From assembly GCA_041742375.1 (NCBI GenBank), contig JBGSIU010000039.1:1-53155 (forward strand): 53,155 nucleotides of DNA, read 5' to 3'. This document shows, piece by piece, positions 2,393-38,946 of this stretch (the first letter of the stretch is position 1; every line of letters starts with the position of its first letter). The stretch comes from Patescibacteria group bacterium. GTDB lineage: Bacteria; Patescibacteriota; Microgenomatia; JBGSIU01. Under the pieces are notes generated by a model, which worked only from the letters and a program-made list of their open reading frames with translations, was not told the DNA's origin and did no database searches. The position numbers and the translations under genes were made by a program.

Positions 2393-2422
2393 TTTTATTT
2401 ACTTGTGGAGGAGGTGAATATT

Positions 2423-2803
2423 ATGTCAGATAAAATCACAAAACTCATTGATGAAGTATCACAACTATCAGTTATTGAACTTTCTGAACTTGTTCGCGCA
2501 ATGGAGGAAAAATTTGGAGTATCTAGTGCTCCGGTTGCGGTTGCCGCCGCGTCAGCACAATCTCAAAACGAATCAAAAACTGAAGAGAAAACTGCATTTG
2601 ATGTTGTCCTTAAATCCGCCGGAGCAAATAAAATTGCCGTAATTAAAGTTGTCCGAGAACTTGTACCAACTCTTGGATTAAAAGAAGCGAAAGATTTGGC
2701 TGAGGCAGGAAATAAGGAAGTATTAAGCGCTGTTAACAAGGAAAAGGCTGAAGAGGCAAAAAAGAAATTGCAAGAAGCTGGAGCAACTGTTGAATTAAAA
2801 TAA
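2423..2803 (+). CDS. rplL: 50S ribosomal protein L7/L12
   Basis: [33 protein letters not shown]; start moved to ATG 2423 behind SD GGAGGAGGTG (2407-2416). Confidence 0.97.
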
Positions 2804-2817
2804 TTAATAATTTTTGT

Positions 2818-2854
2818 AAAGAGCTCAGCAAAAATTAAGGCTGAGCTCTTTTTT
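2818..2854 (+). terminator. Rho-independent terminator after rplL
   Basis: AAAGAGCTCAGC / GCTGAGCTCTTT 12-bp stem followed by T run. Confidence 0.85.
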
Positions 2855-2921
2855 GTTGTTTTGATGGTATTCTGAGGTGATTTGATAACCTAGATAGTGT
2901 AATAATGCTCTTTGTTATCTA

Positions 2922-2951
2922 TTGACAGATTAGTAATAACTATGGTACTAA
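2922..2951 (+). promoter_or_regulatory. Candidate sigma70 promoter for HTH gene
   Basis: Perfect TTGACA at 2922, 18 nt spacer, TGn-TACTAA (imperfect -10). Confidence 0.35.
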
Positions 2952-2981
2952 ATATATAGTATTAAAAATATCAAACTGTCC

Positions 2982-3038
2982 AATTTGAATTTTGATCATT
3001 CATAAATTTTTTAAATTTCGAATTTCAAATTTCAAATT
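2982..3038. repeat. Degenerate inverted 7-mer array (AATTTCA-type)
   Basis: aatttgaattttgat ... aaatttcg aatttca aatttca aatt directly before HTH gene. Confidence 0.5.
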
Positions 3039-3043
3039 ATGTT

Positions 3044-3250
3044 ATGGCACTTGGTGACGAATGGCCAGAATTATTAACCGTTTCAGAAGTCGCAAAAATA
3101 TTGCGAGTTTCTCCTCTGACAATTAAACGCTGGGGGAAGCGGGGGAAACTCCCGGCGATTAGAATTAATTCCCGCGGCGATCGTAGATACAAAAAAGAGG
3201 CTGTTCTTTGGCTTTTAGGAGTTCAACAAACAAAAAGCCCTACAGAATAA
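3044..3250 (+). CDS. Excisionase/MerR-like helix-turn-helix DNA-binding protein
   Basis: LLTVSEVAKILRVSPLTIKRWGKRGKLPAIRINSRGDRRY. Confidence 0.85.
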   Translation: MALGDEWPELLTVSEVAKILRVSPLTIKRWGKRGKLPAIRINSRGDRRYKKEAVLWLLGVQQTKSPTE

Positions 3251-4088
3251 GAGATTTAATCTCTTCTGAAGCATCGCTGGGATCAACAATATTCAAGGAA
3301 ATTCCTGTCCCTAGTTCAAACCCAGCACGAATCATCAACCGAGGAATAATGCGAAGATACCAATTTTCAAGCGGATAAATATATAAATTGTAGGCAAATT
3401 CAGGTACGAGTGCTCCATTTTTAGCATTTGGCTTTAAAAAAATTGTTTTTAGTTTGTTTAAGATTAGTTTTAAATTGATGGCTAGCTCTTGTATTTCAGC
3501 GTTTGTGATATCTCCGAAAAAGCAGTTTTTCCTTTCGGGAGCAATCCATACTTCATACGGCCACTGGGAAAACTCGGGGCAAAAAATTGAAAAATACACA
3601 TTTTCTAAAATCAAGTTATTTTTCGGCTCCAGTTCCAAAGTATCTAATTTTATTTGATGCGGAATAACTACAAGTTGTGAATGAGGATGGATTTGGGAAG
3701 CTCCAGTAGTTTTTCCGTGATTGGTAAATATTAAAACCTGGCCAGACTTGCGATAATAATTAAACCTGTCTTTAAAAGCGGTAAGAATTTTTATATTTTG
3801 CTCAATACCTAATTCTTCAATATCTTTTAAATGATCGGTTGAGTGGATAATGACTTCGTGGGTATCGGTGATGCTATATAAATTCGGCACAACTCTAACT
3901 TCCCAACCCTGTTCATTGTCTTTTCCATTGCCCGCTCTGTATGTTTCGGGCGGTGTCATATGCTCATTACCAACACAAAAGGGACATTTTTTTTCATCCT
4001 GTTCTTTATGTTGATCAGGCCTACCGAGCCTTTTTGGAGCGATTACTACCCAGCGTTTGGTATGAATATCGGGAACGTATCTAGCCAA
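3240..4088 (-). CDS. galT: Galactose-1-phosphate uridylyltransferase-like (GalT/HIT) protein, TTG start
   Basis: WVVIAPKRLGRP, CPFC, GASQIHPHSQ (HPH nucleophile), AGFELGTG. Confidence 0.8.
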   Translation of the reverse strand: MARYVPDIHTKRWVVIAPKRLGRPDQHKEQDEKKCPFCVGNEHMTPPETYRAGNGKDNEQGWEVRVVPNLYSITDTHEVIIHSTDHLKDIEELGIEQNIKILTAFKDRFNYYRKSGQVLIFTNHGKTTGASQIHPHSQLVVIPHQIKLDTLELEPKNNLILENVYFSIFCPEFSQWPYEVWIAPERKNCFFGDITNAEIQELAINLKLILNKLKTIFLKPNAKNGALVPEFAYNLYIYPLENWYLRIIPRLMIRAGFELGTGISLNIVDPSDASEEIKSLIL

Positions 4089-4095
4089 ATAATAA

Positions 4096-4205
4096 AATAC
4101 TATCCAATACTAACTAATACTAACCAATGCCATCCAATACTAACAAAATGTTGTTAGTTAGTATTTGATAGTATTAGTTAGTATTTGATAGTATTAGTTA
4201 GTATT
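4096..4205. repeat. Inverted 10-mer tandem array (AATACTAwCy)n ... (rGwTAGTATT)n
   Basis: About five units 4096-4146 facing five complementary units 4151-4205; single arm again at 9845-9885. Confidence 0.9.
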
Positions 4206-4733
4206 TATTTCATCTCCAATTTTAATATTGTTTTTACGTATAAACCCCGCGTTGACTTCAAGTATTCGATCGACTGGTTCGCGCGACGAATAGATTCTTT
4301 GTTCATCAAGATGCGAAACATTTTCTGTGATATCAACTATCTTCTTATTATTAATCCAAAGAAAGTCAATGTCAAATCTCATGCCTTTCATCCAAAATGT
4401 GTAATAATCTGGATTGTCATAGACAAAAAGCATACCTTGATCGTCATTTAGAACGTCACGACCACCTAAACCCTTTGCTTTATCTTTATTTGTCTCGACT
4501 ATTTCAACATCTATTTTTATTTTATTATTGATAGTTAAAAAATGGACATCATTTACTTGTGGTGAATATAAATTACGCAGAAGAACAATAAAAAAAGCAA
4601 ATAATAAGGAAGAAAATGATACACAAATTAGCATTTTAAAGCGCCAGCGCCTACGAAGAATTACCCATTTTGGAGTTTTTGGATTTAAATACCATTTAAT
4701 GATGCTATTAAATGCTTTCTTCATTTTCCTCAT
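4194..4733 (-). CDS. DUF192-family protein with N-terminal membrane anchor
   Basis: KAKGLGGR, GMLFVY, FWMKGMRFDIDFLWI, ILEVNAG; start likely ATG 4733 or 4724 rather than 4811. Confidence 0.85.
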   Translation of the reverse strand: MRKMKKAFNSIIKWYLNPKTPKWVILRRRWRFKMLICVSFSSLLFAFFIVLLRNLYSPQVNDVHFLTINNKIKIDVEIVETNKDKAKGLGGRDVLNDDQGMLFVYDNPDYYTFWMKGMRFDIDFLWINNKKIVDITENVSHLDEQRIYSSREPVDRILEVNAGFIRKNNIKIGDEINTN

Positions 4734-5553: not shown

Positions 5554-7107
5554 TTATTCAACTTTGCGGTATTGAAGCGCTTCGTATACATTATTTTTTT
5601 GAATCTTTTCATTATTTTTTAAATCGGCAATCGTTCGTGCTAGTTTTAAAATTCTAAAATAACTACGGGCGGAAAGAGACATTTTAACGACTGCTTGTTT
5701 TAGCATCTCTTGAGTTTCCTCATCAAGCTGACAATATTTTTTTATTTCGGCTGACCTCATTTCTGAATTGCTAATTAAACCCGTTCCCCTAAACCTGACA
5801 GCTTGAATATCGCGTGCTTTTTGAACTCTTGCTTGAATAATTTCACTTTTTTCCTCTGTGCAATCCTGATCAGTTAATTTGTCATATTTTACCCGTGGCA
5901 CTTCAATATGAATATCTATTCTATCCCAAATCGGACCAGAAATATGTTTTCTATAATTAACAATTTGTGTCGGCGTGCATGAACATCTTTTTTCCGGATC
6001 GCCGTAAAAACCGCAGGCGCATGGATTTTGGCTGGTGATCAAAAGGAATTTTGCCGGAAACGTGATTGACATAGTGGCACGAGAAATTGTCACAATTCCA
6101 TCCTCAATCGGAGCACGCAGCGCTTCAATGCAGCTCTTGGGAAATTGAGGGAATTCATCCAAAAATAAAACTCCACGGTGAGCCAAACTTATTTCTCCCG
6201 GATGAGGATGGCTGCCGCCGCCAATTAAACCGATGGCAGAAATCGTGTGGTGAGGGGCACGAAATTGGCGGGTGGAGACAAGTGGCTTGTCTTTTGACAA
6301 AAGGCCGCAAATGCTAAAAATTTTGGAAACCTCAAGTGCTTCGCGCAAGGTTAAACGAGGGAGAATGGAAACAAATGCCCGCGAAAGCATGGTTTTTCCG
6401 GCGCCCGGTGTGCCGCTTAACGCAATATTGTGGCTTCCCGCCGCAGCAATTTCGAGCGCCCGCTTAGCAAATTCCTGTCCTCTTATTTCAGAAAAATCTG
6501 TCTCGAAAGTTTGGGCGCTGGCAAGCGAATCGACCGAAATATCGTCCAACGGCTTAATTTCTTCAATGTGGTTTAAGTGCAAAACTAACTCTTTTAAAGA
6601 ATTAACAGAGTATACATTAATGCGGCGGTCGGAATGGGTTTTATTATAAAGCGAGCAAATAATGTTGGCTTCATAGGCATTATCGCGAGCAACATAAATC
6701 TCGGAAATTTTTTCTTTTTTGACTAAAAATAACATTGCAAGAACTCCTGAAACATTTTTGACTTCGCCGGTTAAAGAAAGTTCGCCGATAAAAACTTTAT
6801 CCAAATAATCGCCATCTTTCAAGCTTCCGCCGGCTTTTAAAACGCCGATTGCAATTGCCAAATCAAAAGAAGTGCCATCTTTTGGCAAGTCAGAAGGCGC
6901 GAGGTTTACAACAATTTTTTCATTGGGAAATTCGCTTCCTGAATTGCGGACCGCGCTTTTCACGCGTTCCCGAGCTTCTTCAACGCTTTTATCAGCCAGT
7001 CCAACAATCGAAAAAGAGGGCAGTCCGCGGCCCGGCAGATCAACCTCAACCTCAATTAAAACACTATCGAGTCCAATTACGGTCGATGTTAACGTTTTCG
7101 CAAACAT
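5554..7107 (-). CDS. comM: YifB/ComM Mg-chelatase-like AAA+ ATPase
   Basis: VNLAPSDLPK, GTPGAGKT Walker A, FRAPHH, GEISLAHRGVLFLDEF, LSARSY. Confidence 0.95.
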   Translation of the reverse strand: MFAKTLTSTVIGLDSVLIEVEVDLPGRGLPSFSIVGLADKSVEEARERVKSAVRNSGSEFPNEKIVVNLAPSDLPKDGTSFDLAIAIGVLKAGGSLKDGDYLDKVFIGELSLTGEVKNVSGVLAMLFLVKKEKISEIYVARDNAYEANIICSLYNKTHSDRRINVYSVNSLKELVLHLNHIEEIKPLDDISVDSLASAQTFETDFSEIRGQEFAKRALEIAAAGSHNIALSGTPGAGKTMLSRAFVSILPRLTLREALEVSKIFSICGLLSKDKPLVSTRQFRAPHHTISAIGLIGGGSHPHPGEISLAHRGVLFLDEFPQFPKSCIEALRAPIEDGIVTISRATMSITFPAKFLLITSQNPCACGFYGDPEKRCSCTPTQIVNYRKHISGPIWDRIDIHIEVPRVKYDKLTDQDCTEEKSEIIQARVQKARDIQAVRFRGTGLISNSEMRSAEIKKYCQLDEETQEMLKQAVVKMSLSARSYFRILKLARTIADLKNNEKIQKNNVYEALQYRKVE

Positions 7108-7114
7108 ACTTATA

Positions 7115-7149
7115 TAAATTACGAATTACGAATTAAAAATTACGAATTA
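7115..7149. repeat. 7-mer array (AATTACG)n, left arm of four-helix-bundle element
   Basis: aaattacg aattacg aattaaa aattacg aatta; complementary to 7472-7520. Confidence 0.9.
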
Positions 7150-7470
7150 TTTATTTTTTTAGTCGTTGTTTGAATTTTACCCAGTATCCTAATTATTTCT
7201 TCAATATCTGAAATTTGAGTCACGTAGCAATCTTATCCAGTAACGAGCTTCTCTTGCTTCTTTATAGGCAATTGCAATTTTGACTAAAAAATCATTTCTT
7301 GAACAACCACCAATAGCTTCCTCCACGTTTGCACCAATCGATGTTCCGCAACGCAATATTTGCTTTGATAACACAAATTCTTTTTTATCTTTAGATAAAT
7401 AGATATACAGCTTGATGATTCTAATTGAAAAATCATATGTCTTTGTCTGAATAATATTATCAGTTTTCAT
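7140..7470 (-). pseudogene. Four-helix-bundle protein (23S rRNA IVP / Avd-like family), frameshifted
   Basis: KTYDFSIRII, LSKQILRCGTSIGANVEEA, IAYKEAREARYW; last helix SDIEEIIRILGKIQTTTK lies in another frame (7211-7140) after LRDSN. Confidence 0.85.
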
Positions 7471-7471
7471 A

Positions 7472-7520
7472 TTGCTTTTTTGGTTTTTTATTCGTAATTC
7501 GTAATTTTTAATTTTTAATT
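7472..7520. repeat. 7-mer array, right arm of four-helix-bundle element
   Basis: ttcgtaa ttcgtaa tttttaa tttttaa tt; overlaps tsaD stop. Confidence 0.9.
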
Positions 7521-8668
7521 GGGTCATCGATTTCCCAATTTGGCAACCTGTCAACCTTATTTATATCACGAACAAATTCGTTTCGTTTGGCTTTGTAAAA
7601 ACCGGCAAGCGCAATCATGGCCGCGTTGTCGCTGTTATATTTTTTTTCAGGGAAATAAGCCGGAATTCCAAATTTTTTAGCCGTTTGTCGAATCATTTTG
7701 CGAATCGCCAAATTGTTCATCACTCCCCCACCACATAAAATAAAATTGGCAGGCCCGCCTGCCAGCGCTTTGCCGCAGGCAATGCGGGCAGGGTAGTCCG
7801 TCAAGCATTTTTCCAGTTTGCGGCGAATTGAATCGATTAAAACAAATTGAAAAGAAGCGCAAAAGTCAGAAATAAATTGTTTGTCTTTAACACCAGAATA
7901 GTTTCGCAAAAAATACATCGCGGCGGTTTTTAAACCGGAGAAGCTAAAATTATAATCATGGCTTTTTAACATAGGAATTGGCAATTGATAAATCGGTTCC
8001 CCATCTTTGGCTAGTTGCTCCACAATTTCACCACCGGGATACCCAAGTTCCAGCATTTTGGCAACTTTATCAAACGCCTCCCCCGCCGCATCATCCAGCG
8101 TGTCCCCCAAGATCTCATACTTTCCAATTGCATTTACTTTCACAATCTGTGTATGCCCGCCAGAAATTAAAACCCCAACCCCTGGAAAATTTAAATTTTC
8201 AATATTTGCTATATCTTCCTTATTTTTGATTTTTGATTTTTGATTTTTGATTTTGCTTTCAGCTTTGATAAAAGCTGAAAGCAAATGTCCTTCCATGTGA
8301 TTAACTGCGATAAATTTCTTATTAAATTTCTCACAAATTTCTTTTGCCTTTCTAATTCCCACTTCAAGCGCAATCGCAAGCCCCGGCCCAACCGTTACGG
8401 CGACTGCGTCAATATCGTTTAATGTAATTTTTCCAAATTTTTGATTTTTGATTTTTGATTTTTGATTTTTTTTGATACGGTTGAATGCAATATTTATAAC
8501 ATTATCGATGTTTTGCTCGTGGTTAATTCTCGCTAAGCTTGGCACTACTCCTCCCCATTTTTTGTGAACTTCAATTTGAGAATAAACCACGCTGGAAAGA
8601 ATGTGGTCATCGCGACTCACCGCCGCTGATGTTTCATCACAAGAAGTATCAATTGCTAAGATTAGCAT
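7508..8668 (-). CDS. tsaD: tRNA t6A threonylcarbamoyltransferase TsaD with three repeat-derived insertions
   Basis: IDTSCDET, GPGL, NHMEGH, SGGHT, DDAAGEAFDK, FSFSGLKT, DNAAMIA. Confidence 0.96.
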   Translation of the reverse strand: MLILAIDTSCDETSAAVSRDDHILSSVVYSQIEVHKKWGGVVPSLARINHEQNIDNVINIAFNRIKKNQKSKIKNQKFGKITLNDIDAVAVTVGPGLAIALEVGIRKAKEICEKFNKKFIAVNHMEGHLLSAFIKAESKIKNQKSKIKNKEDIANIENLNFPGVGVLISGGHTQIVKVNAIGKYEILGDTLDDAAGEAFDKVAKMLELGYPGGEIVEQLAKDGEPIYQLPIPMLKSHDYNFSFSGLKTAAMYFLRNYSGVKDKQFISDFCASFQFVLIDSIRRKLEKCLTDYPARIACGKALAGGPANFILCGGGVMNNLAIRKMIRQTAKKFGIPAYFPEKKYNSDNAAMIALAGFYKAKRNEFVRDINKVDRLPNWEIDDPIKN

Positions 8669-9813
8669 AGTATTTTTCTTTTATTTTCTCCTATTGTTTC
8701 TATTTTCACCCAAATTACTTTCACGTCTTTTCTTTTTTCAATTTTTTTCAAAATCCCAAAAACCTTTTCTCCCCATTCAATTGCAATGACATTACCAGAA
8801 GAAATCATTTTTTCAAAACCAATATCAAGCAGCTCTTTTTCGCTTTCCATTCTCCATGTATCAATATGAAATAAAATACGACGAGTACTGTCATTCCCGC
8901 GAAAGCGGGAATCCAGACTTCTGGTTCTCTGGGTCCTCGCCTGCGCGGGGATGACAGATGGGGCGAGGTATTCACTGCATAAAATAAAGGTTGGCGATTT
9001 TATATTGTTTTTTATTCCCAACCCTCGTGCAATCCCCTTCACAAACTGCGTTTTCCCAGCTCCCAGATCACCCTGTAAAGCAATAATTAAACAATTTGGT
9101 TTTTTATTCGTAATTCGTAATTCGTAATTTTTAATTAGTAATTCGCCAATCTTGATAGTTTCCTCCACAGAATTTGAAACATATGTTTTTGTATTCAAAA
9201 TATCAAAGATAAATTCTCCTTGTCTCAAAATTTTTGGTTCATTTAATGTTGTGTCAACAATTGTTGAAGGCGCGCGGTGTGGCAAAACCCCAGCATCAAT
9301 AATTAAATCAATTAATTCTTTTTTTGCCAGCGAAATTCTATCTAGAATATCAGCCTGCACATCATATGGTGTCTTCCCATTAGAAACATTAGCAGAGGTC
9401 GATGTAATCGGTTTCCCAAACTTCTTAATGATTTTTAAAATTAAACCGTAGTCAGGATAGCGAATCCCAAGAGTCCCTGTGTCAGATTCCAAATTGGAAT
9501 CAACCTTGTGTTTTCCTTGTGCGACAATCGTGATTGGTCCTGGCAAAAAATTGTTAAATAAATTTTCAGCAGCGGGGCTCAGATCGGCATATTTCTTCAC
9601 CATCGTGATATCACTCACCGCGACCGATATCGGTTTTCCGCGCCGGTCACCTTTATATTTAATTAACTTCTCGACCGCTTTGGCGTTCGTTGCGTCAACC
9701 CCAATTCCATAGCAAGTTTCAGTTGGATAAATCACCACGCCACCATTTTTTAGCACTTTTATTGCTATGTTTATTATCTTTTTTTTCGAAATATCTACGC
9801 TTACTATTTCCAT
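8662..9813 (-). CDS. Fusion of TsaC/Sua5 threonylcarbamoyl-AMP synthase and TsaE ATPase
   Basis: N-half YPTETCYG, KGDR, PGPIT, TSTSANVS; C-half GDLGAGKT, KSPTF, HIDTWR, IEW. Confidence 0.92.
   Translation of the reverse strand: MEIVSVDISKKKIINIAIKVLKNGGVVIYPTETCYGIGVDATNAKAVEKLIKYKGDRRGKPISVAVSDITMVKKYADLSPAAENLFNNFLPGPITIVAQGKHKVDSNLESDTGTLGIRYPDYGLILKIIKKFGKPITSTSANVSNGKTPYDVQADILDRISLAKKELIDLIIDAGVLPHRAPSTIVDTTLNEPKILRQGEFIFDILNTKTYVSNSVEETIKIGELLIKNYELRITNKKPNCLIIALQGDLGAGKTQFVKGIARGLGIKNNIKSPTFILCSEYLAPSVIPAQARTQRTRSLDSRFRGNDSTRRILFHIDTWRMESEKELLDIGFEKMISSGNVIAIEWGEKVFGILKKIEKRKDVKVIWVKIETIGENKRKILC
8888..8957. repeat. RS3/REP-like bipartite palindrome inserted in frame in the TsaE domain
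   Basis: CTGTCATTCCCGCGAAAGCGGGAATCCAG facing CTGGGTCCTCGCCTGCGCGGGGATGACAG; first 29 nt identical to 41538-41566. Confidence 0.9.
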
Positions 9814-23070: not shown

Positions 23071-23140
23071 ACCATTGTTCCATTATTCAATTGTTCCATC
23101 CGCCTTGGGCGGATGAAACAATGAAGCAATGAGGCAATCG
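23071..23140. repeat. Inverted 8-mer array with central CATCCGCCTTGGGCGGATG hairpin
   Basis: 34 nt (23090-23123) identical to 24480-24513. Confidence 0.9.
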
Positions 23141-23142
23141 TC

Positions 23143-24450
23143 CTATTTAAATTTATCTTCAAAATATGATTTTAATTCTGTAATATTTATGCGAATTTGC
23201 TTCATAGTGTCTCTGTCGCGCACGGTCACGCTTTTATCCTCAAGTGACTGAAAATCAACTGTCACACAAAAAGGCGTACCAATCTCATCATGCCGGCGGT
23301 ATCTTTTTCCGATATTGCTATTATCGTCGTACATTATTTGAAAGTCCATTTTTAAATCTTGAAAAATCTTTTTTGCCACATCAACAATGTCTGGTTTATT
23401 AACCGATAAGGGAAAAACTGCAATTTTAATCGGAGCAATTTTACGATTAAGCTTTAAAACAACACGCGCTTCTTTTCCATCAACAGCTTCTTCTTGATAG
23501 GCATCAAATAATAAAAATAAAAATGTGCGGTCAACTCCGCCTGAGGTTTCAACAATGTTAGGAATAAATTTTTTACCGGTCATATCCGTATATGTGAAAT
23601 CATGGCCGGAAAATTCTCCATGGCGGCGCAAATCCCAGTCGCCGCGCCAGTGGATGCCTTCCCACTCGTACCAACCAAAAGGCGCCTGATATTCGATGTC
23701 AACTGCTTGATGGGCATAATGGGCAAGCTCATCTTTTGCATGTGGGCGCAAATGTAAATGTTCTTTAACATTAACCAAACTTTTATACCATGCAAAACGT
23801 TTTTCCTTCCACTTTTCAAAAAAGAATTCTATTCTGTCGGGACTACAAAACCATTGAAGATCCCATTGTTCAAATTCGCGCATGCGAGTTAGGAATTTTT
23901 CCGGCGTGATTTCGTTCCGAAAAGCTTTCCCGATCTGAGCAATCCCAAAAGGAATTTTCGGATGCATTGAGCTTAAAACATTGTCATAATCAAGATAAAT
24001 ATTCTGGCATGCTTCACCGCGAAGATAACTGACGCGTTTTTCGCTTTCGACCACGCCAAGGGATGTTTCCACCATTAAATTAAATTTGCGGGGAGGTGTA
24101 AAACCACCACCGCATGTCGGGCAAGTTTTTCCAACTTTATCCGCTCTAAATCTTTTTTGGCAGCTTTTACAATCAACTAGTAAATCAAAAAATGAAGAGG
24201 TATGCCCTGAAGCATCCCAAACTTTTGGATGAGTGATAATTGACCCGTCAATTCCAAAAATGTCCTCATTTTCCTGAAGCATAAATCTCCACCATAAATT
24301 TTTAATGTTAATTTTCATTAAGTTTCCCAATGGTCCGTAGTCATAAAATCCACGAATGCCACCGTATATTTCGGAGTTTTGGAAAACAAAACCGCGGCGC
24401 TTGCATAACGAAACGATCTTTTCTAGTTTACCTGTATCGTTAATTCCCAC
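23143..24450 (-). CDS. glyS: Glycine-tRNA ligase, alpha2 (eukaryote/archaea-like) type, GTG start
   Basis: CKRRGF, YDYGPLG, GKAFRNEITP, REFEQ, ELAHYA, IGKRYRRHDEIGTPFC. Confidence 0.96.
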   Translation of the reverse strand: MGINDTGKLEKIVSLCKRRGFVFQNSEIYGGIRGFYDYGPLGNLMKINIKNLWWRFMLQENEDIFGIDGSIITHPKVWDASGHTSSFFDLLVDCKSCQKRFRADKVGKTCPTCGGGFTPPRKFNLMVETSLGVVESEKRVSYLRGEACQNIYLDYDNVLSSMHPKIPFGIAQIGKAFRNEITPEKFLTRMREFEQWDLQWFCSPDRIEFFFEKWKEKRFAWYKSLVNVKEHLHLRPHAKDELAHYAHQAVDIEYQAPFGWYEWEGIHWRGDWDLRRHGEFSGHDFTYTDMTGKKFIPNIVETSGGVDRTFLFLLFDAYQEEAVDGKEARVVLKLNRKIAPIKIAVFPLSVNKPDIVDVAKKIFQDLKMDFQIMYDDNSNIGKRYRRHDEIGTPFCVTVDFQSLEDKSVTVRDRDTMKQIRINITELKSYFEDKFK

Positions 24451-24462
24451 TTATCTTCAGCA

Positions 24463-24530
24463 AATTGCTCCATTGTTCGATTGTTCCATCCGCCTTGGGC
24501 GGATGAAACAATGTAGCAATGAAGCAATCA
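24463..24530. repeat. Inverted 8-mer array with central hairpin (second copy)
   Basis: Same architecture as 23071-23140; starts at recO stop. Confidence 0.9.
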
Positions 24531-35727: not shown

Positions 35728-35821
35728 AAATTCAAAATTCAAAGTTCAAAATTAAAAATTATGGTATTTTTTTTAAATTTTTATTTGTGTTTTTGATTTT
35801 TGATATTTGATTTTTGATTTA
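35728..35821. repeat. Inverted 7-mer array
   Basis: aaattca aaattca aagttca aaattaa facing ttttgat-type arm; right arm is exact reverse complement of 37230-37272. Confidence 0.9.
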
Positions 35822-37243
35822 TATTTGGCATTTCAGCTCCACAATCACAAATTTCTCATTTTTATATATCACATTGCATTCCTCCATTATGCGCTTAGTT
35901 GGCTCATCGAAATTTGTTGACACATAATGCGTTGCTCCCAGTTTAATTTGTGGCATGACATTACTCGTATTATAAAGCAGTGGCCAACCGGCACGGTTCG
36001 TTTGGTATAAAAATGCCGTATCTCCGCCATAAGGCGCAATCACTTTCGCGTCTTTTGGCGTGATTTTATCAACTCTGCGGCCGGCTTCAACAATTTCTGG
36101 ATGATTAACGTTAAAAAAGCCTTGAACTTCATACCAAGAAAGGGCAAAGGATAAAAAAACGAAAAAGGCTGTAATTGTCAGGCGAACATATTTTTCCCAA
36201 CCGTTACCGTTTTCCCTAATAATTTTTTCTAATCCCAATCCGCACAAAATTGCCACTGTCGGCAAAATTAAAATCTGGTAATAATCGTGCCTCACATTTC
36301 CTGTTGCAAAAATAATTAAATATAAGAGGGATGACAACCCAAGTATTTCAAAGATATAATTCTTATTTTTTTTGAATAATATTCCGATTGTCAAAAAAAT
36401 AATTCCCCAATATCCCAAAATTAATTTCCCAATTCGCTCGCCAAAGAGCCATCTAAACCAGGCGCCTTTCAAGCGAATCCCATCGCCGTTTAACAGCCAA
36501 GAAGAGGCAGGAATCCCTTCGGGAAAGCGCTGAATATAAAAACGCCACAATAACAGAGGTAAAAAAGAAAAACTAAAAGCGAAAAGCGAGATGGAAAATG
36601 ATAAATTTTTATTTTTTACGTTGTGAAATATTATGTAGATAATTGGTAACCCGAAGAAGATTGCCGTAGGCTTAATTAATAATGCAATCGCGAAAAAAAT
36701 TGTCGAAATAATTAAATTTTTACGTGACATAAAATACAGGCTTCCCATGGCAAACATCACTGCGGTTGGGTCTGGTAATAAAACACGGCCGTAAAAAATG
36801 AAAAACGGCAAAAAACCATAAAAAAGCGCGGCAAAAATTCCAGACAATTCATCTGCATATTTTTTCGTGAACAGATAAATAAAAAGCATCGTTAGAATTG
36901 AAGAAAAAATTGTGATCAATCTTCCCCATATTTCAAGTTTAAACGCCGGAAAACTTAGGTAAGACAATGCCACAATTGCGTTGTAAATTGGAAATTCCAC
37001 CATCCGTAATCCTTGAGGATTTTCTTTGCCTGAAGCTACATTTGATAAATCATCATACTGAGGTTTTAGAAGATTAATGCCGTTTTTAACAAAATTCCGC
37101 GATACGGCAATTGTATCAGCCTGGCGCCAAGAATGCCAATCGGCCACAGGGTTATCAATTTTGTAGAGGCGGACTATAAATGCGCCCAAAAATAATATTA
37201 TTAAGAATAATTTTTTAATGATCAGAACCAAATCAAAAATCAA
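35819..37243 (-). CDS. GT-C (ArnT/PMT-like) integral membrane glycosyltransferase; no ATG near 5' end
   Basis: DWHSWRQADT, EFPIYN, multi-TM, RHDYYQ. Confidence 0.85.
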   Translation of the reverse strand: MIFDLVLIIKKLFLIILFLGAFIVRLYKIDNPVADWHSWRQADTIAVSRNFVKNGINLLKPQYDDLSNVASGKENPQGLRMVEFPIYNAIVALSYLSFPAFKLEIWGRLITIFSSILTMLFIYLFTKKYADELSGIFAALFYGFLPFFIFYGRVLLPDPTAVMFAMGSLYFMSRKNLIISTIFFAIALLIKPTAIFFGLPIIYIIFHNVKNKNLSFSISLFAFSFSFLPLLLWRFYIQRFPEGIPASSWLLNGDGIRLKGAWFRWLFGERIGKLILGYWGIIFLTIGILFKKNKNYIFEILGLSSLLYLIIFATGNVRHDYYQILILPTVAILCGLGLEKIIRENGNGWEKYVRLTITAFFVFLSFALSWYEVQGFFNVNHPEIVEAGRRVDKITPKDAKVIAPYGGDTAFLYQTNRAGWPLLYNTSNVMPQIKLGATHYVSTNFDEPTKRIMEECNVIYKNEKFVIVELKCQI

Positions 37244-37350
37244 ATATCAAAAATCAAAAACACAAATAAAAAACGAAAAATACTCATTTCTCATCATTTT
37301 TAATTTTTAATCTGTATTTTTGAATTTTGATTTTCGAGTTTTGATTTTTA
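37230..37350. repeat. Inverted 7-mer array
   Basis: (AAATCAA)4-cacaaataaaaa ... tttttaatctgta-(TTTTGAw)4. Confidence 0.9.
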
Positions 37351-38946
37351 TTAGTCTTTACCAAGCGCTATTAATTTAAGCGTTATTCCCGTCATTGCCC
37401 AATAAATAAACGCCACTTTGGATGCCTCAAAAACATCAATATAGCTGGCGTTTACTAATAATCCAAAGGTTCCGGCAATATATGCGGAAAGAAATGCAAA
37501 TTTAAAATCAATTTCTAATTTCTTAAGCTTCCTTCCCACCAAATACAAGCAGTAGAAAATAATTCCGAAAAATGATAAGAGTCCTAAAAGTCCTGTTTCG
37601 CCCAGCGCGCGCAAATAATCATTATCAGTTGATTCAGCCTCGGTAAACTGAGACACGCTTTCTTTTGTTAAAGTTGAATAACCTGTTCCAAGCAAAGGGT
37701 TAGTTTTAAAAGCTTTTAAGGCACGCGGCCAAAGCGCATCCAACCGAATTGCTGCCGATAAACCAACATTAAATGCTGCAGGAGAATAACCCCGTGGAAC
37801 CGCTGAATATGACGCAATTTTCTTCCCAAATTTATCAGTCGTATACGTGATAATTACTCTTTCCGGAATATCTTTTTCAACATCGGGTGGCAATTCTTTA
37901 CTCTCCGACGTTCCCGATGCCCCTTTATTAACAACCTTCGGTGGAACATCGCTTTCAACCGCAATAAGTGAAAGTTCCTGTTCAAGCGTTAAATGTTTTG
38001 GAACGTCTATTTTTACAGGCTGTTTAGCAAAACTAATAAGCGCCCATATTTGCTTTACTCCCATAATCTGTGCAAACCTTTCGTTAAGCTCGCCGAAAGA
38101 CAGCATAATAAAAAACGATAAATATATCATAAAAACGCTTCTCGTAATGATCCAAACCAAATTCCTTTTTTTAACTGACCAAATAATAATAAGAATAATC
38201 AACGCAACAATATATGAAATAAAAGAAGTTCTGGACGCGGTTAGAACCAATAGAAAAATTGAAGAAATGAAAATTATTAGAGAAAAGGCTTTTAGGATTA
38301 TATTTTTAATAAAAAGAAAGATTGAACCTGAGAAGACCAACGCCATCACAAGATATGCTGCCAAATCATAGTGCCCGCCAAAAGTCGAAACAACGCGTGC
38401 ATGTTCAGTTAAAACTAACCGCCATCCCTTTGAAAATTCGCGATTCATGGTGGAATACACTGGCCACTGAAGATATTTTTGACCAAAACCATAGATATTA
38501 ATCCCGAAAAGTGCGACAAAAAACACAATCAAAGCAATTTTAATTTGAGTTTTATTCTTAATTGATAAATAAAAAATATAAAACACGGAAAAATATTCAA
38601 TTCTGCGCATCCAATGAATCAACATTTTTCCCGAATGAAGGGGTTCCCAAAAAACTGTTTTTGTGATAATGAGCGCTGAAAGCATTGAGAAGAACCCAAT
38701 AGCTAGGTAATAAATGATCGGTCTATCAAGTGGAGTCCTGGCATTTTTAAATTTTGTTTTTAGATTTGTGAAAAAAATCAAAAGAACGGCAAACAGAATT
38801 AAAAAATCTTCAATACGCACGCGCACAATATAGCCTGGAATTAAATCAAAAAGAGGAAGCTTTGGATACAGAGGAACAAACAAAAGCAAAAAACAGCTGT
38901 AAATAAAGGTCAAATTGTCTCTAAACTTTAGAGTAAGCTTTTTCAT
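37351..38946 (-). CDS. O-antigen ligase/polymerase-like membrane protein
   Basis: RVVSTFGG, LTASRTS, NPLLGTG, TDNDYLRALGETG. Confidence 0.8.
   Translation of the reverse strand: MKKLTLKFRDNLTFIYSCFLLLFVPLYPKLPLFDLIPGYIVRVRIEDFLILFAVLLIFFTNLKTKFKNARTPLDRPIIYYLAIGFFSMLSALIITKTVFWEPLHSGKMLIHWMRRIEYFSVFYIFYLSIKNKTQIKIALIVFFVALFGINIYGFGQKYLQWPVYSTMNREFSKGWRLVLTEHARVVSTFGGHYDLAAYLVMALVFSGSIFLFIKNIILKAFSLIIFISSIFLLVLTASRTSFISYIVALIILIIIWSVKKRNLVWIITRSVFMIYLSFFIMLSFGELNERFAQIMGVKQIWALISFAKQPVKIDVPKHLTLEQELSLIAVESDVPPKVVNKGASGTSESKELPPDVEKDIPERVIITYTTDKFGKKIASYSAVPRGYSPAAFNVGLSAAIRLDALWPRALKAFKTNPLLGTGYSTLTKESVSQFTEAESTDNDYLRALGETGLLGLLSFFGIIFYCLYLVGRKLKKLEIDFKFAFLSAYIAGTFGLLVNASYIDVFEASKVAFIYWAMTGITLKLIALGKD

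Follow-up and report, generated by a model that had tools for sequence, protein, structure and literature searches.

The window analysed here is the entire 53-kb contig JBGSIU010000039.1 of a Patescibacteria group bacterium, whose genome (1.13 Mb, 37.6% G+C, 65 contigs) we designate G000, with Cn denoting its contigs. The minus strand of the window carries a head-to-tail run consisting of a sua5-tsaE fusion, tsaD, a short open reading frame (ORF) for a four-helix-bundle (4HB) protein and a comM-like gene. The 4HB gene is enclosed by two inverted arrays of a heptamer, referred to below as arms, and the full cassette of gene and arms extends over 7113–7520. The features of the locus, some of them identified with Tandem Repeats Finder (TRF), are as follows.

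7201..7470, minus strand: 4HB ORF in frame 0, helices 1–3 of the PF05635/TIGR02436 fold (Pfam, TIGR02436, translation)
7140..7232, minus strand: +1-frame remainder of the 4HB gene, last helix (translation; identical in a contig of run X1)
7484..7520, minus strand: upstream (5′) arm, degenerate heptamer array of CGAATTA and AAAATTA units (TRF period 7, 5.3 copies; inverted repeat; RNA fold)
7113..7149, minus strand: downstream (3′) arm, heptamer array reading AATTACG on the plus strand (TRF 7117–7149, period 7, 4.7 copies; inverted repeat)
7508..8668, minus strand: tsaD, upstream neighbour, co-directional (ORF, translation; Pfam TsaD in two stretches)
5554..7107, minus strand: comM-like Mg-chelatase-family ATPase gene, downstream neighbour, co-directional (Pfam Mg_chelatase, ChlI, Mg_chelatase_C)
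8662..9813, minus strand: sua5-tsaE fusion gene (Pfam Sua5 and TsaE)

The ORF at 7201–7470 (minus strand) matched the Pfam family PF05635 (23S_rRNA_IVP) at E = 9e-20 over profile positions 2–84 of 106. Its score of 71.3 bits against a cut-off of 33.8 established membership of the family, and the NCBIfam model TIGR02436 ('four helix bundle protein') agreed (E = 1e-21, 77.2 bits, cut-off 24). Frame 0 runs from an ATG at 7470 to a TGA at 7201–7203 and encodes 89 aa, the profile match ending at position 84. The last helix ('..ISDIEEIIRILGKIQTTTKKINNS') is found in the +1 frame, which is open from 7232 to a TAA at 7140–7142, and this ancestral stop codon falls within the downstream arm. This places a frameshift within 7204–7232; the Pfam match and the translations gave no full-length four-helix domain in one frame for the window copy. 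A separate 399-nt contig from run X1, which probably represents the source sample, spans 7121–7519 without a single difference. The window copy is a frameshifted pseudogene or a frameshifted allele, and what the preliminary description had taken for the loaded form of an element is a decaying copy rather than an intact one.

An inverted-repeat search aligned the arms in two registers, 7113–7139 with 7484–7510 (27 nt, 93% complementary, 344 nt between them) and 7124–7149 with 7495–7520 (26 nt, 92%). The arms are degenerate, with AATTAAA units scattered among AATTACG units. They leave little room to the neighbours: the stop codon of tsaD (7508–7510) falls inside the upstream arm, and the downstream arm ends 5 nt ahead of the ATG of the comM-like gene (7107). 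When the minus-strand RNA from 7535 to 7100 was folded, the arms paired (18 + 4 bp) round the whole ORF in both the minimum free energy and the centroid structure, with a z-score of −2.83 and none of 100 shuffles equally stable. A 4HB gene set between tsaD and comM within inverted arms, and a stem holding the ORF in its loop, had both been predicted from the letters alone and were borne out by these analyses. The cassette thus displays two hallmarks of the intervening sequences (IVS) of 23S rRNA, namely terminal inverted repeats that form an enclosing stem and an S23p-family ORF inside that stem. It does not itself lie in 23S rRNA, since a search of window positions 5710–8961 (locus L002) against Rfam at gathering threshold returned no RNA family. 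The defence models of PADLOC recognised no family among three 4HB members, the window protein included.

Occurrence of the layout in the host genome and its relatives

PF05635 matched 10 proteins of G000, most of which sit, by eye, between inverted arrays, each with a unit of its own. To quantify this, 1090 non-overlapping ORFs were called in G000 and the complementarity of the two flanks of each was scored. With 75-nt flanks (1063 ORFs), a gapped score above 17 was reached by five of nine 4HB ORFs and by 25 of 1054 others (Fisher p = 1.5e-6), so the expectation that paralogues would be preferentially flanked by inverted arrays held. The window cassette scored 23 when its true boundaries were used, the automatic ORF call having overrun the upstream arm; 13 of the 1054 non-4HB ORFs exceeded 21. 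Without gaps (130-nt flanks, 1044 ORFs) the nine 4HB ORFs scored 22, 20, 20, 17, 16, 16, 8, 8 and 8, and the 95th percentile of the others was 11. The non-4HB genes with high scores were for the most part ordinary ones that have a complete hairpin on either side, both of one family, and so differ in geometry. Six canonical paralogues share 28–65% identity in the conserved core. Long-form paralogues of 183–254 aa at C59:8738-9289 and C59:15710-16471 have 9- or 10-mer arrays (ATAAGACTT; TTCCTTTAAA) upstream of the ORF and again within it, which means that an arm is partly translated.

Within the class, 134 of 201 sampled genomes contained PF05635, and single genomes, about 1 Mb in size, had as many as 16 matches. 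We assembled a set of 99 loci (30 loci, the next 60 listed matches and the 10 copies of G000, of which 99 out of 100 had usable flanks) and computed duplex energies between the two 70-nt flanks, one preceding the ATG and the other following the stop codon. The median was −27.9 kcal/mol for true pairs and −17.3 kcal/mol for mismatched ones (Mann–Whitney p = 3e-24), and 38 of the 99 true pairs fell under the 5th percentile of the mismatched-pair energies. Strict periodicity was observed in 36 upstream and 43 downstream arms, 30 of each with period 7, as opposed to 3 of 495 shuffles. The arrays abut the gene closely: the median distance is 6.5 nt from array end to ATG and 5 nt from stop codon to array start.

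An alignment-based scan of named genomes, built on eight canonical members, yielded 80 loci, nearly all from Patescibacteria or other candidate phyla radiation (CPR) lineages and one from Kiritimatiellales. By eye, nearly all of them have inverted arms, which often reach into the first or last codons. The two sources were pooled into 180 loci and filtered to 172. Mismatched pairs served as the null; 89 of the 172 loci lay above its 95th percentile and 38 above its 99th. This null is inflated by unit classes common to several loci; the pooled loci are best-scoring matches related to one another, and one of them (L103 = L147) is counted twice. The median paired arm measured 33 nt, and a recurrent heptamer was present in 128 of the 172 loci. 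The units are diverse and fall into classes, the window unit CGAATTA belonging by eye to a common xGAATTA class.

The particular position of the window cassette was not encountered in the relatives searched. Among 80 loci from a further alignment-based scan, where the best match had 56% identity, the 4HB gene stood beside comM once and beside tsaD never. A tblastn search of 21 regions upstream of comM-like genes, found in 25 of 31 genomes of class-level relatives (G000 included), detected neither tsaD nor a 4HB gene, and a metagenome scan with the window 4HB protein found no relative.

As a separate observation, loci L040 (G085) and L067 (G019) have the 4HB gene within an apparent intein-bearing gene, with '..TTGNHPYL..' before and '..WVKV.YLSPGDSIA..' after it and heptamer arrays downstream only. 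A homing endonuclease is usual at that intein position.

Cassettes in other phyla and in rRNA

Plasmids searched by tblastn gave 28 records, mostly cyanobacterial. Eight loci were viewed, and five showed clear inverted heptamer arms (Nostoc edaphicum, Geminocystis, Anabaena sp. 90, Riemerella anatipestifer and Azospirillum lipoferum). As to the other three, Aulosira was partial with a short match, Pseudanabaena had direct arrays and Calothrix PCC 7716 had nothing. The 4HB gene of N. edaphicum lies between nrdB and nrdA with GGGAGTA/TACTCCC arms, and that of the Anabaena sp. 90 plasmid (L225) between cas6 and cas4 with GGTGACA/TGTCACC arms. The Pseudanabaena galeata plasmid copy (L220) is likewise placed between cas6 and cas4, accompanied by 15 + 10 direct heptamer units. 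Surveys list PF05635 as CRISPR-associated, judging from passages of PMC3936711 and PMC10910872; insertion into cas operons together with short repeat arrays may be the reason.

The Azospirillum locus, on plasmid AZO_p2, is located inside large-subunit rRNA (RF02541, model positions 868–1655) and has inverted arrays of GGACAGA type. It is a classical 23S IVS that carries inverted heptamer arms. In Coxiella, according to passages of PMC4990558, the S23p ORF of the 23S IVS is directly preceded by two to three tandem GACAGAT heptamers, the terminal stem measures 28 bp and is cleaved by RNase III in vitro, and the ORF is decaying and probably untranslated. The window cassette thus resembles the 23S rRNA IVS of Leptospira, Coxiella, Brucella and Azospirillum in having a PF05635 ORF within stem-forming terminal inverted repeats, in heptamers that abut the ORF, and in a sporadic distribution with mostly vertical descent. 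It differs in location, the IVS sitting in helix 25 or 45 of 23S rRNA and the window cassette between protein genes of an operon. An arm–ORF–arm order is the usual architecture of the PF05635/TIGR02436 family, seen in the one 23S rRNA IVS examined as well as in protein-gene spacers. The layout is typical of the family and not a matter of chance. Arms and gene form one unit, as the preliminary description had proposed; the arrangement recurs at the paralogues, in the 172 loci, in other phyla and in a true rRNA IVS.

The 4HB genes of Nostoc, Anabaena and Geminocystis are bracketed by G-rich heptamers resembling the heptamer repeats of cyanobacteria, for which we take STRR to be the label. Passages of PMC4692102 describe GGGGAYT arrays in Nostoc and 70–75 convergent GGGAATC pairs in Xanthomonas. 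Like the arms described here, these repeats form intergenic arrays, often as inverted pairs, which vary in length yet stay in place between close relatives. The passages returned from that paper make no link to PF05635, and the terms 'xcc0516' and 'rRNA' did not occur in its text. A literature search in which subscription journals were thinly covered found no paper that reports heptamer arrays flanking PF05635 genes located outside rRNA.

The ties of PF05635 to 23S rRNA IVS and to Avd, the accessory protein of diversity-generating retroelements (DGRs), which had been stated at the outset, agreed with the profiles and with the parts of PMC4990558 and PMC10053308 that bear on them. Avd has a related four-helix-bundle fold, forms a positively charged pentamer and binds an RNA stem-loop with all five protomers, as far as the preprint 10.1101/2023.10.23.563531 reports in the sections available. 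One might regard the cassette as the relic of a DGR, with only its Avd gene surviving the loss of the reverse transcriptase and of the template and variable repeats. Family kinship with Avd speaks for this idea, but the Avd equivalog model NF033474, with a cut-off of 80 bits, scored a canonical member at 24 and did not match the window protein at all. Moreover, no RVT_1 gene was found in G000, the arms are heptamer arrays and not template or variable repeats, and the family is far too widespread in the class for DGRs to account for it (134 of 201 genomes, as many as 16 copies in one genome). We regard a DGR origin of this kind as hardly credible. The cassette differs from the Avd system in lacking a reverse transcriptase and template or variable repeats and in surrounding its own gene with a long heptamer stem.

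Hairpins without a gene

Heptamer arrays are far more numerous in G000 than 4HB genes. TRF reported 1689 repeat rows, 459 of them with period 7; a first-order Markov shuffle yielded 432 rows, 51 with period 7. We counted 60 gene-less inverted array pairs with loops below 100 nt (44 with period 7, 11 with period 10), and 50 of the 54 pairs with both neighbours called lie between co-oriented genes, the baseline being 788 of 1025 adjacent gene pairs. They fall into families such as AATACTAACC (11 copies), AGTCAGT (6), GAATCTG (4), AAATCAA and others, whose members have a vocabulary of unit variants in common, with loops and flanks unconserved. Two such pairs and one lone array in the window are listed here.

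4096..4206, strand not assigned: gene-less arm pair, period 10, AATACTAACC family, 14-nt loop (TRF, hairpin census)
37230..37352, strand not assigned: gene-less arm pair (AAATCAA)n/(TTGATTT)n, 14-nt loop (TRF, hairpin census)
9106..9145, minus strand: lone array with the window arm unit (ATTCGTA on the plus strand), in frame within sua5-tsaE and read KNYELRITNKK (TRF period 7, 5.7 copies)

The pair at 37230–37352 has 43 nt in common with another at 35728–35820, and the two stand on either side of a glycosyltransferase-like gene. At C15:29448-29620 and C64:25883-26030, hairpins are nested, a GTAGTCx heptamer or an AT-rich hairpin occupying the loop of a AATACTAACC 10-mer hairpin; new elements, it seems, insert or survive in such loops. 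Compared by eye, GTAGTCx and GAATCTx both belong to the classes that bracket 4HB genes in other genomes. The window unit itself, as (AATTACG) repeated at least twice, occurs in 12 places on 9 contigs of G000, among them a short-loop hairpin at C15:24744-24812 and the array within sua5-tsaE.

The abundance of these hairpins could mean that intergenic heptamer hairpins are general punctuation and that the 4HB gene merely happens to lie between two of them. The 60 gene-less pairs and their preference for spacers between co-oriented genes would agree with this, as would several hairpin-flanked ordinary genes that outscore the 4HB genes (35819–37243, an rpsH-like ORF on C64 and C26:8191-8757). Ordinary genes, however, have a complete hairpin in each spacer, whereas the ORF of a 4HB gene splits the two arms of one hairpin. 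The enrichment in the flank test, the fact that each 4HB locus has its own unit matched between both sides, and the recurrence of the layout in cyanobacteria, Bacteroidota and an alphaproteobacterial rRNA gene likewise contradict it. This explanation is largely refuted, and we give it very little chance.

A further proposal had been that gene-less arm pairs and lone arms are derivatives of the cassette. We searched the six frames of G000 with a hidden Markov model of the 172 proteins. A clear 4HB remnant was found at C3:6895-7053 (E = 0.0024), where a C-terminal fragment lies between AAATCAA/TTGATTT arrays (C3:6893-7100); a weak match at C7:7317-7436 (E = 0.22) was also returned. Together with an arm–remnant–arm structure in G003 and lone arms in G053 and G152 (see below), this demonstrably derives some gene-less forms from cassettes. 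Support did not extend to the bulk of the hairpins, as only one of the 60 gene-less pairs of G000 contained a significant remnant, and the gene-less families may have dynamics of their own. In being abundant short palindromes between co-oriented genes, with gene-less forms outnumbering protein-coding ones, the hairpins are reminiscent of repetitive extragenic palindromes (REPs), their REPIN hairpins and MITEs (miniature inverted-repeat transposable elements). REPINs, by contrast, have conserved sequences and a RAYT transposase, whereas the hairpins described here have only a unit vocabulary in common and the protein tied to them is without a known catalytic domain.

In metagenomic assemblies, the summed contig depth over the AATTACG arm (7117–7163) reached 2400–4700 in runs X1, X3 and X4, as against about 10 over the gene, which indicates that AATTACG arrays are extremely abundant in these hot-spring metagenomes, beyond the window organism. 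Candidate joints that skipped 334–352 nt at the arms were considered as signs of excision and rejected on account of their short sides (21–33 nt), the foreign letters between these and their occurrence in runs nearly devoid of the locus. The assembled contigs examined suggest that they are other short-loop AATTACG hairpins of those metagenomes.

Repeats of related kinds were noticed at several other genes. The interior of tsaD contains perfect (ATTTTTG)n arrays at 8222–8254 and 8437–8470 (TRF 100%), co-oriented and in frame, which insert KSKIKNQ-type peptides; the two-stretch Pfam TsaD match suggests that they are lineage-specific insertions. The coding-strand unit CAAAAAT is free of stop codons in every phase and the opposite strand has TGA, which would explain why both arrays share one orientation. 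The linker of sua5-tsaE (8805–8975) harbours a G+C-rich palindromic element, also in frame, whose strands read '..WIPAFAGMT..' and '..LDSRFRGND..', and inverted copies of this palindrome bracket a 110-aa GIY-YIG gene at C16:1000-1332 (PF01541, E = 5.5e-16). A glycyl-tRNA-synthetase-like gene (23143–24450) has one 8-mer-array hairpin on both sides (23113–23138, 24464–24489, 24503–24528), with arms of ATTGTTCC/ATGAAGCA units and a GC-rich core 'CCGCCTTGGGCGG'. A second hairpin-bracketed family comprises Trp-repressor-like proteins of 141–164 aa (C10:1518-1970, C33:2302-2754, C63:7152-7646 and C7:20448-20873; PF01371, E = 2.6e-11 for C10), whose genes have a locus-specific perfect palindrome of 25–40 nt, one copy on each side.

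Orientation, selection and turnover

Among 164 loci with both neighbours called, both were co-oriented with the 4HB gene in 113 and both opposite in 10, which argues that the gene lives on host transcription. For 17 locus pairs whose flanks are related and whose dS is unsaturated, the median dN/dS was 0.16 and the maximum 0.25; the 4HB proteins are under purifying selection. In this they are unlike the decaying ORF of the Coxiella IVS, although the window copy is broken.

Orthologous sites revealed gain, loss and replacement. At the galE/metK junction, G114, G144 and G129 have a cassette, G077 has a 46-nt spacer, and G053 a 76-nt spacer with a lone-arm remnant. The junction of recR-like and ybaB-like genes is occupied in G137, a clean 16-nt spacer in G178 and empty in G066; G152 retains a lone-arm remnant with the G137-type unit, and G087 and G165 have other inserts. 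Where G063 has a full cassette, G003 retains two arms and, between them, about 60 nt from the 3′ end of the ORF. In the congeneric genomes G002 and G062, with flanks 74–76% identical, the cassettes at one site have only 42% core protein identity and unrelated arms. Different genes with different arms at one orthologous site indicate that the arms change together with the gene.

Co-variation between unit and protein, which the preliminary description had asked for, was present but weak. At unrelated sites, 6-mer similarity of the arms rose from 0.020 below 50% protein identity to 0.056 at 70–80% (Spearman 0.23, from non-independent pairs). At related sites the arms were alike only above about 70% protein identity, indicating that they evolve faster than the protein.

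These gains and losses raise the alternative that the cassette is a foldback-type DNA transposon, in which the inverted arrays would serve as internally repetitive terminal repeats for a trans-acting enzyme, encoded by the host or unlinked, or the element would insert into extruded hairpin loops, the 4HB protein being an accessory. Presence or absence and replacement at orthologous sites, the very different contexts of the family (an rRNA helix, cas operons, an nrd operon, a tsa operon) and the nesting of hairpins in the loops of others are what such an element would produce, and CPR rRNA insertions lie at the tops or bases of stem-loops, as stated in parts of 10.1101/2024.02.27.582315. The arm mismatches, too, do not favour RNA (see below). 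Yet no transposase or reverse transcriptase was seen beside any cassette viewed, as had been noted for the window from the start, and no RVT_1 was found in G000. In the sole clean empty/occupied pair compared, G178 with G137, no clear target-site duplication was made out. Several near-identical copies at different sites, as a MITE or transposon would leave, were not found, and the 113 to 10 bias in orientation points to a dependence on transcription that sits poorly with a DNA transposon. We consider a foldback transposon unlikely, though appreciably less so than punctuation or a DGR relic.

Possible mechanism

We favour the reading that the window locus holds, in a decaying state, an IVS-type cassette situated outside rRNA, the stem of which the RNase III of the host cuts, and on balance think it probable. 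An RNase III gene (PF14622) is present in G000. The cassette would consist of a promoterless 4HB gene in the spacer of the tsaD–comM operon, with inverted heptamer arrays abutting its start and stop codons. By analogy with rRNA IVS, host RNase III would cut the stem formed by the arms in the operon transcript, which would allow the cassette to ride on host transcription at little cost and without breaking neighbouring genes. Stop codons in three frames of the heptamer arms, inside which tsaD ends, may insulate the cassette from upstream translation. Arrival at new sites could, speculatively, proceed by recombination through arms that match the unit of resident hairpins, or by insertion into hairpin loops; either would fit the nesting of hairpins and the location of rRNA insertions at helix tips. 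The frameshift has killed the window gene, leaving the locus on its way to a gene-less hairpin. Integron cassettes offer a parallel in their single promoterless ORF dependent on host or platform transcription, their imperfect inverted hairpin repeats and their exchange at one site; the 4HB cassette differs in having arms on both sides of the ORF and no integrase, attC consensus or cassette array.

Several results weigh against this interpretation. A signature of selection on the sense RNA was lacking, G·U and A·C mismatches in the arms being about equally frequent (110 and 95, p = 0.33) and the sense duplex being more stable than the antisense one in only 63 of 99 loci (p = 0.012), so that a DNA-level or protein-binding role of the arms is equally open. 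About half of the 172 loci stayed below the 95th percentile of mismatched pairs, bearing in mind the inflated null. Stop codons in all three frames were found in 58 of 99 sense upstream arms and in 40 of 99 antisense ones, counts that were made without a proper null, and there is at most a weak trend for such stops to account for period 7, which makes the stop-codon idea weak. Three long-form paralogues of G000 depart from the simple arm–ORF–arm layout, and the arrays of the Pseudanabaena cassette are direct and not inverted. No RVT_1 reverse transcriptase (PF00078) was found in G000, which is 97% complete. Recent movement was not seen either, since only 1 of 14577 locus pairs at unrelated sites exceeded 80% identity and the paralogues of G000 reach at most 65%; the mobility ascribed to the element in the preliminary description thus found no confirmation.

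Alternatively, the arms might chiefly bind the pentamer of their own 4HB protein as a periodic stem, in RNA or in extruded DNA, with RNase III playing a secondary part. In that case the protein would control or shield the transcript that encodes it, or act throughout the genome on every hairpin of matching unit. The solved relative XCC0516 (2GSC) has five chains and forms a homopentameric toroid in the account given in parts of PMC4990558, and relatedness to Avd is indicated by the weak NF033474 match of 24 bits to a canonical member and by passages of PMC10053308. In a DGR cryo-electron microscopy preprint, consulted in part, all five Avd protomers contact an 11-bp stem-loop via flipped-out bases (10.1101/2023.10.23.563531). 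Binding by the own protein would also account for a co-variation of unit class and protein clade that persists, weakly, at unrelated sites, for the recurrence of 4HB arm units in gene-less hairpins of G000 (AATTACG, for example, in 12 places) and for mismatches that do not prefer sense RNA. On the other hand, the largest hairpin families of G000 (AAATCAA, AATACTAACC, AGTCAGT) are without an intact 4HB gene having matching arms, a 33-bp stem is about three times as long as the stem held by Avd, and shared descent alone could explain the co-variation. As the chief role of the arms, we rate such binding as rather improbable, if the strongest of the competing explanations. It could nevertheless coexist with cutting by RNase III and, in that form, is a live alternative.

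Implications

The 23S rRNA IVS have been known for more than 30 years and, to our knowledge, their origin, the function of their ORF and their spread are unexplained; we likewise know of no function for the heptamer arrays of bacteria, which have been catalogued repeatedly. The window locus and about 190 related loci tie the two together, one bracketed gene family occurring in both settings, and gene-less hairpins and lone arrays visibly arise from 4HB cassettes. A general link of PF05635 to inverted heptamer arrays, both within rRNA and outside it, was not found in the literature searched. That most hairpins are derivatives of cassettes and that the element is currently mobile are unproven extensions.

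In a wider and more doubtful proposal, PF05635 cassettes would form one very old, undescribed class of bacterial element with inverted heptamer arrays as ends. The rRNA IVS would be copies that landed in rRNA helices, and the heptamer arrays and hairpins of cyanobacteria, xanthomonads and CPR bacteria would largely be footprints. The pentamer would recognise the periodic stem and help to make, move or maintain the arrays; its five protomers compare with a median paired arm of about five units.

Insertion into cas operons, together with the short arrays, would explain the repeated labelling of PF05635 as CRISPR-associated. Tiny CPR genomes keep up to 16 cassettes under purifying selection, which calls for a function. 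With one gene family connecting them, the questions posed by rRNA IVS and by heptamer arrays can be put to the test in tractable hosts, for example Anabaena and Nostoc.

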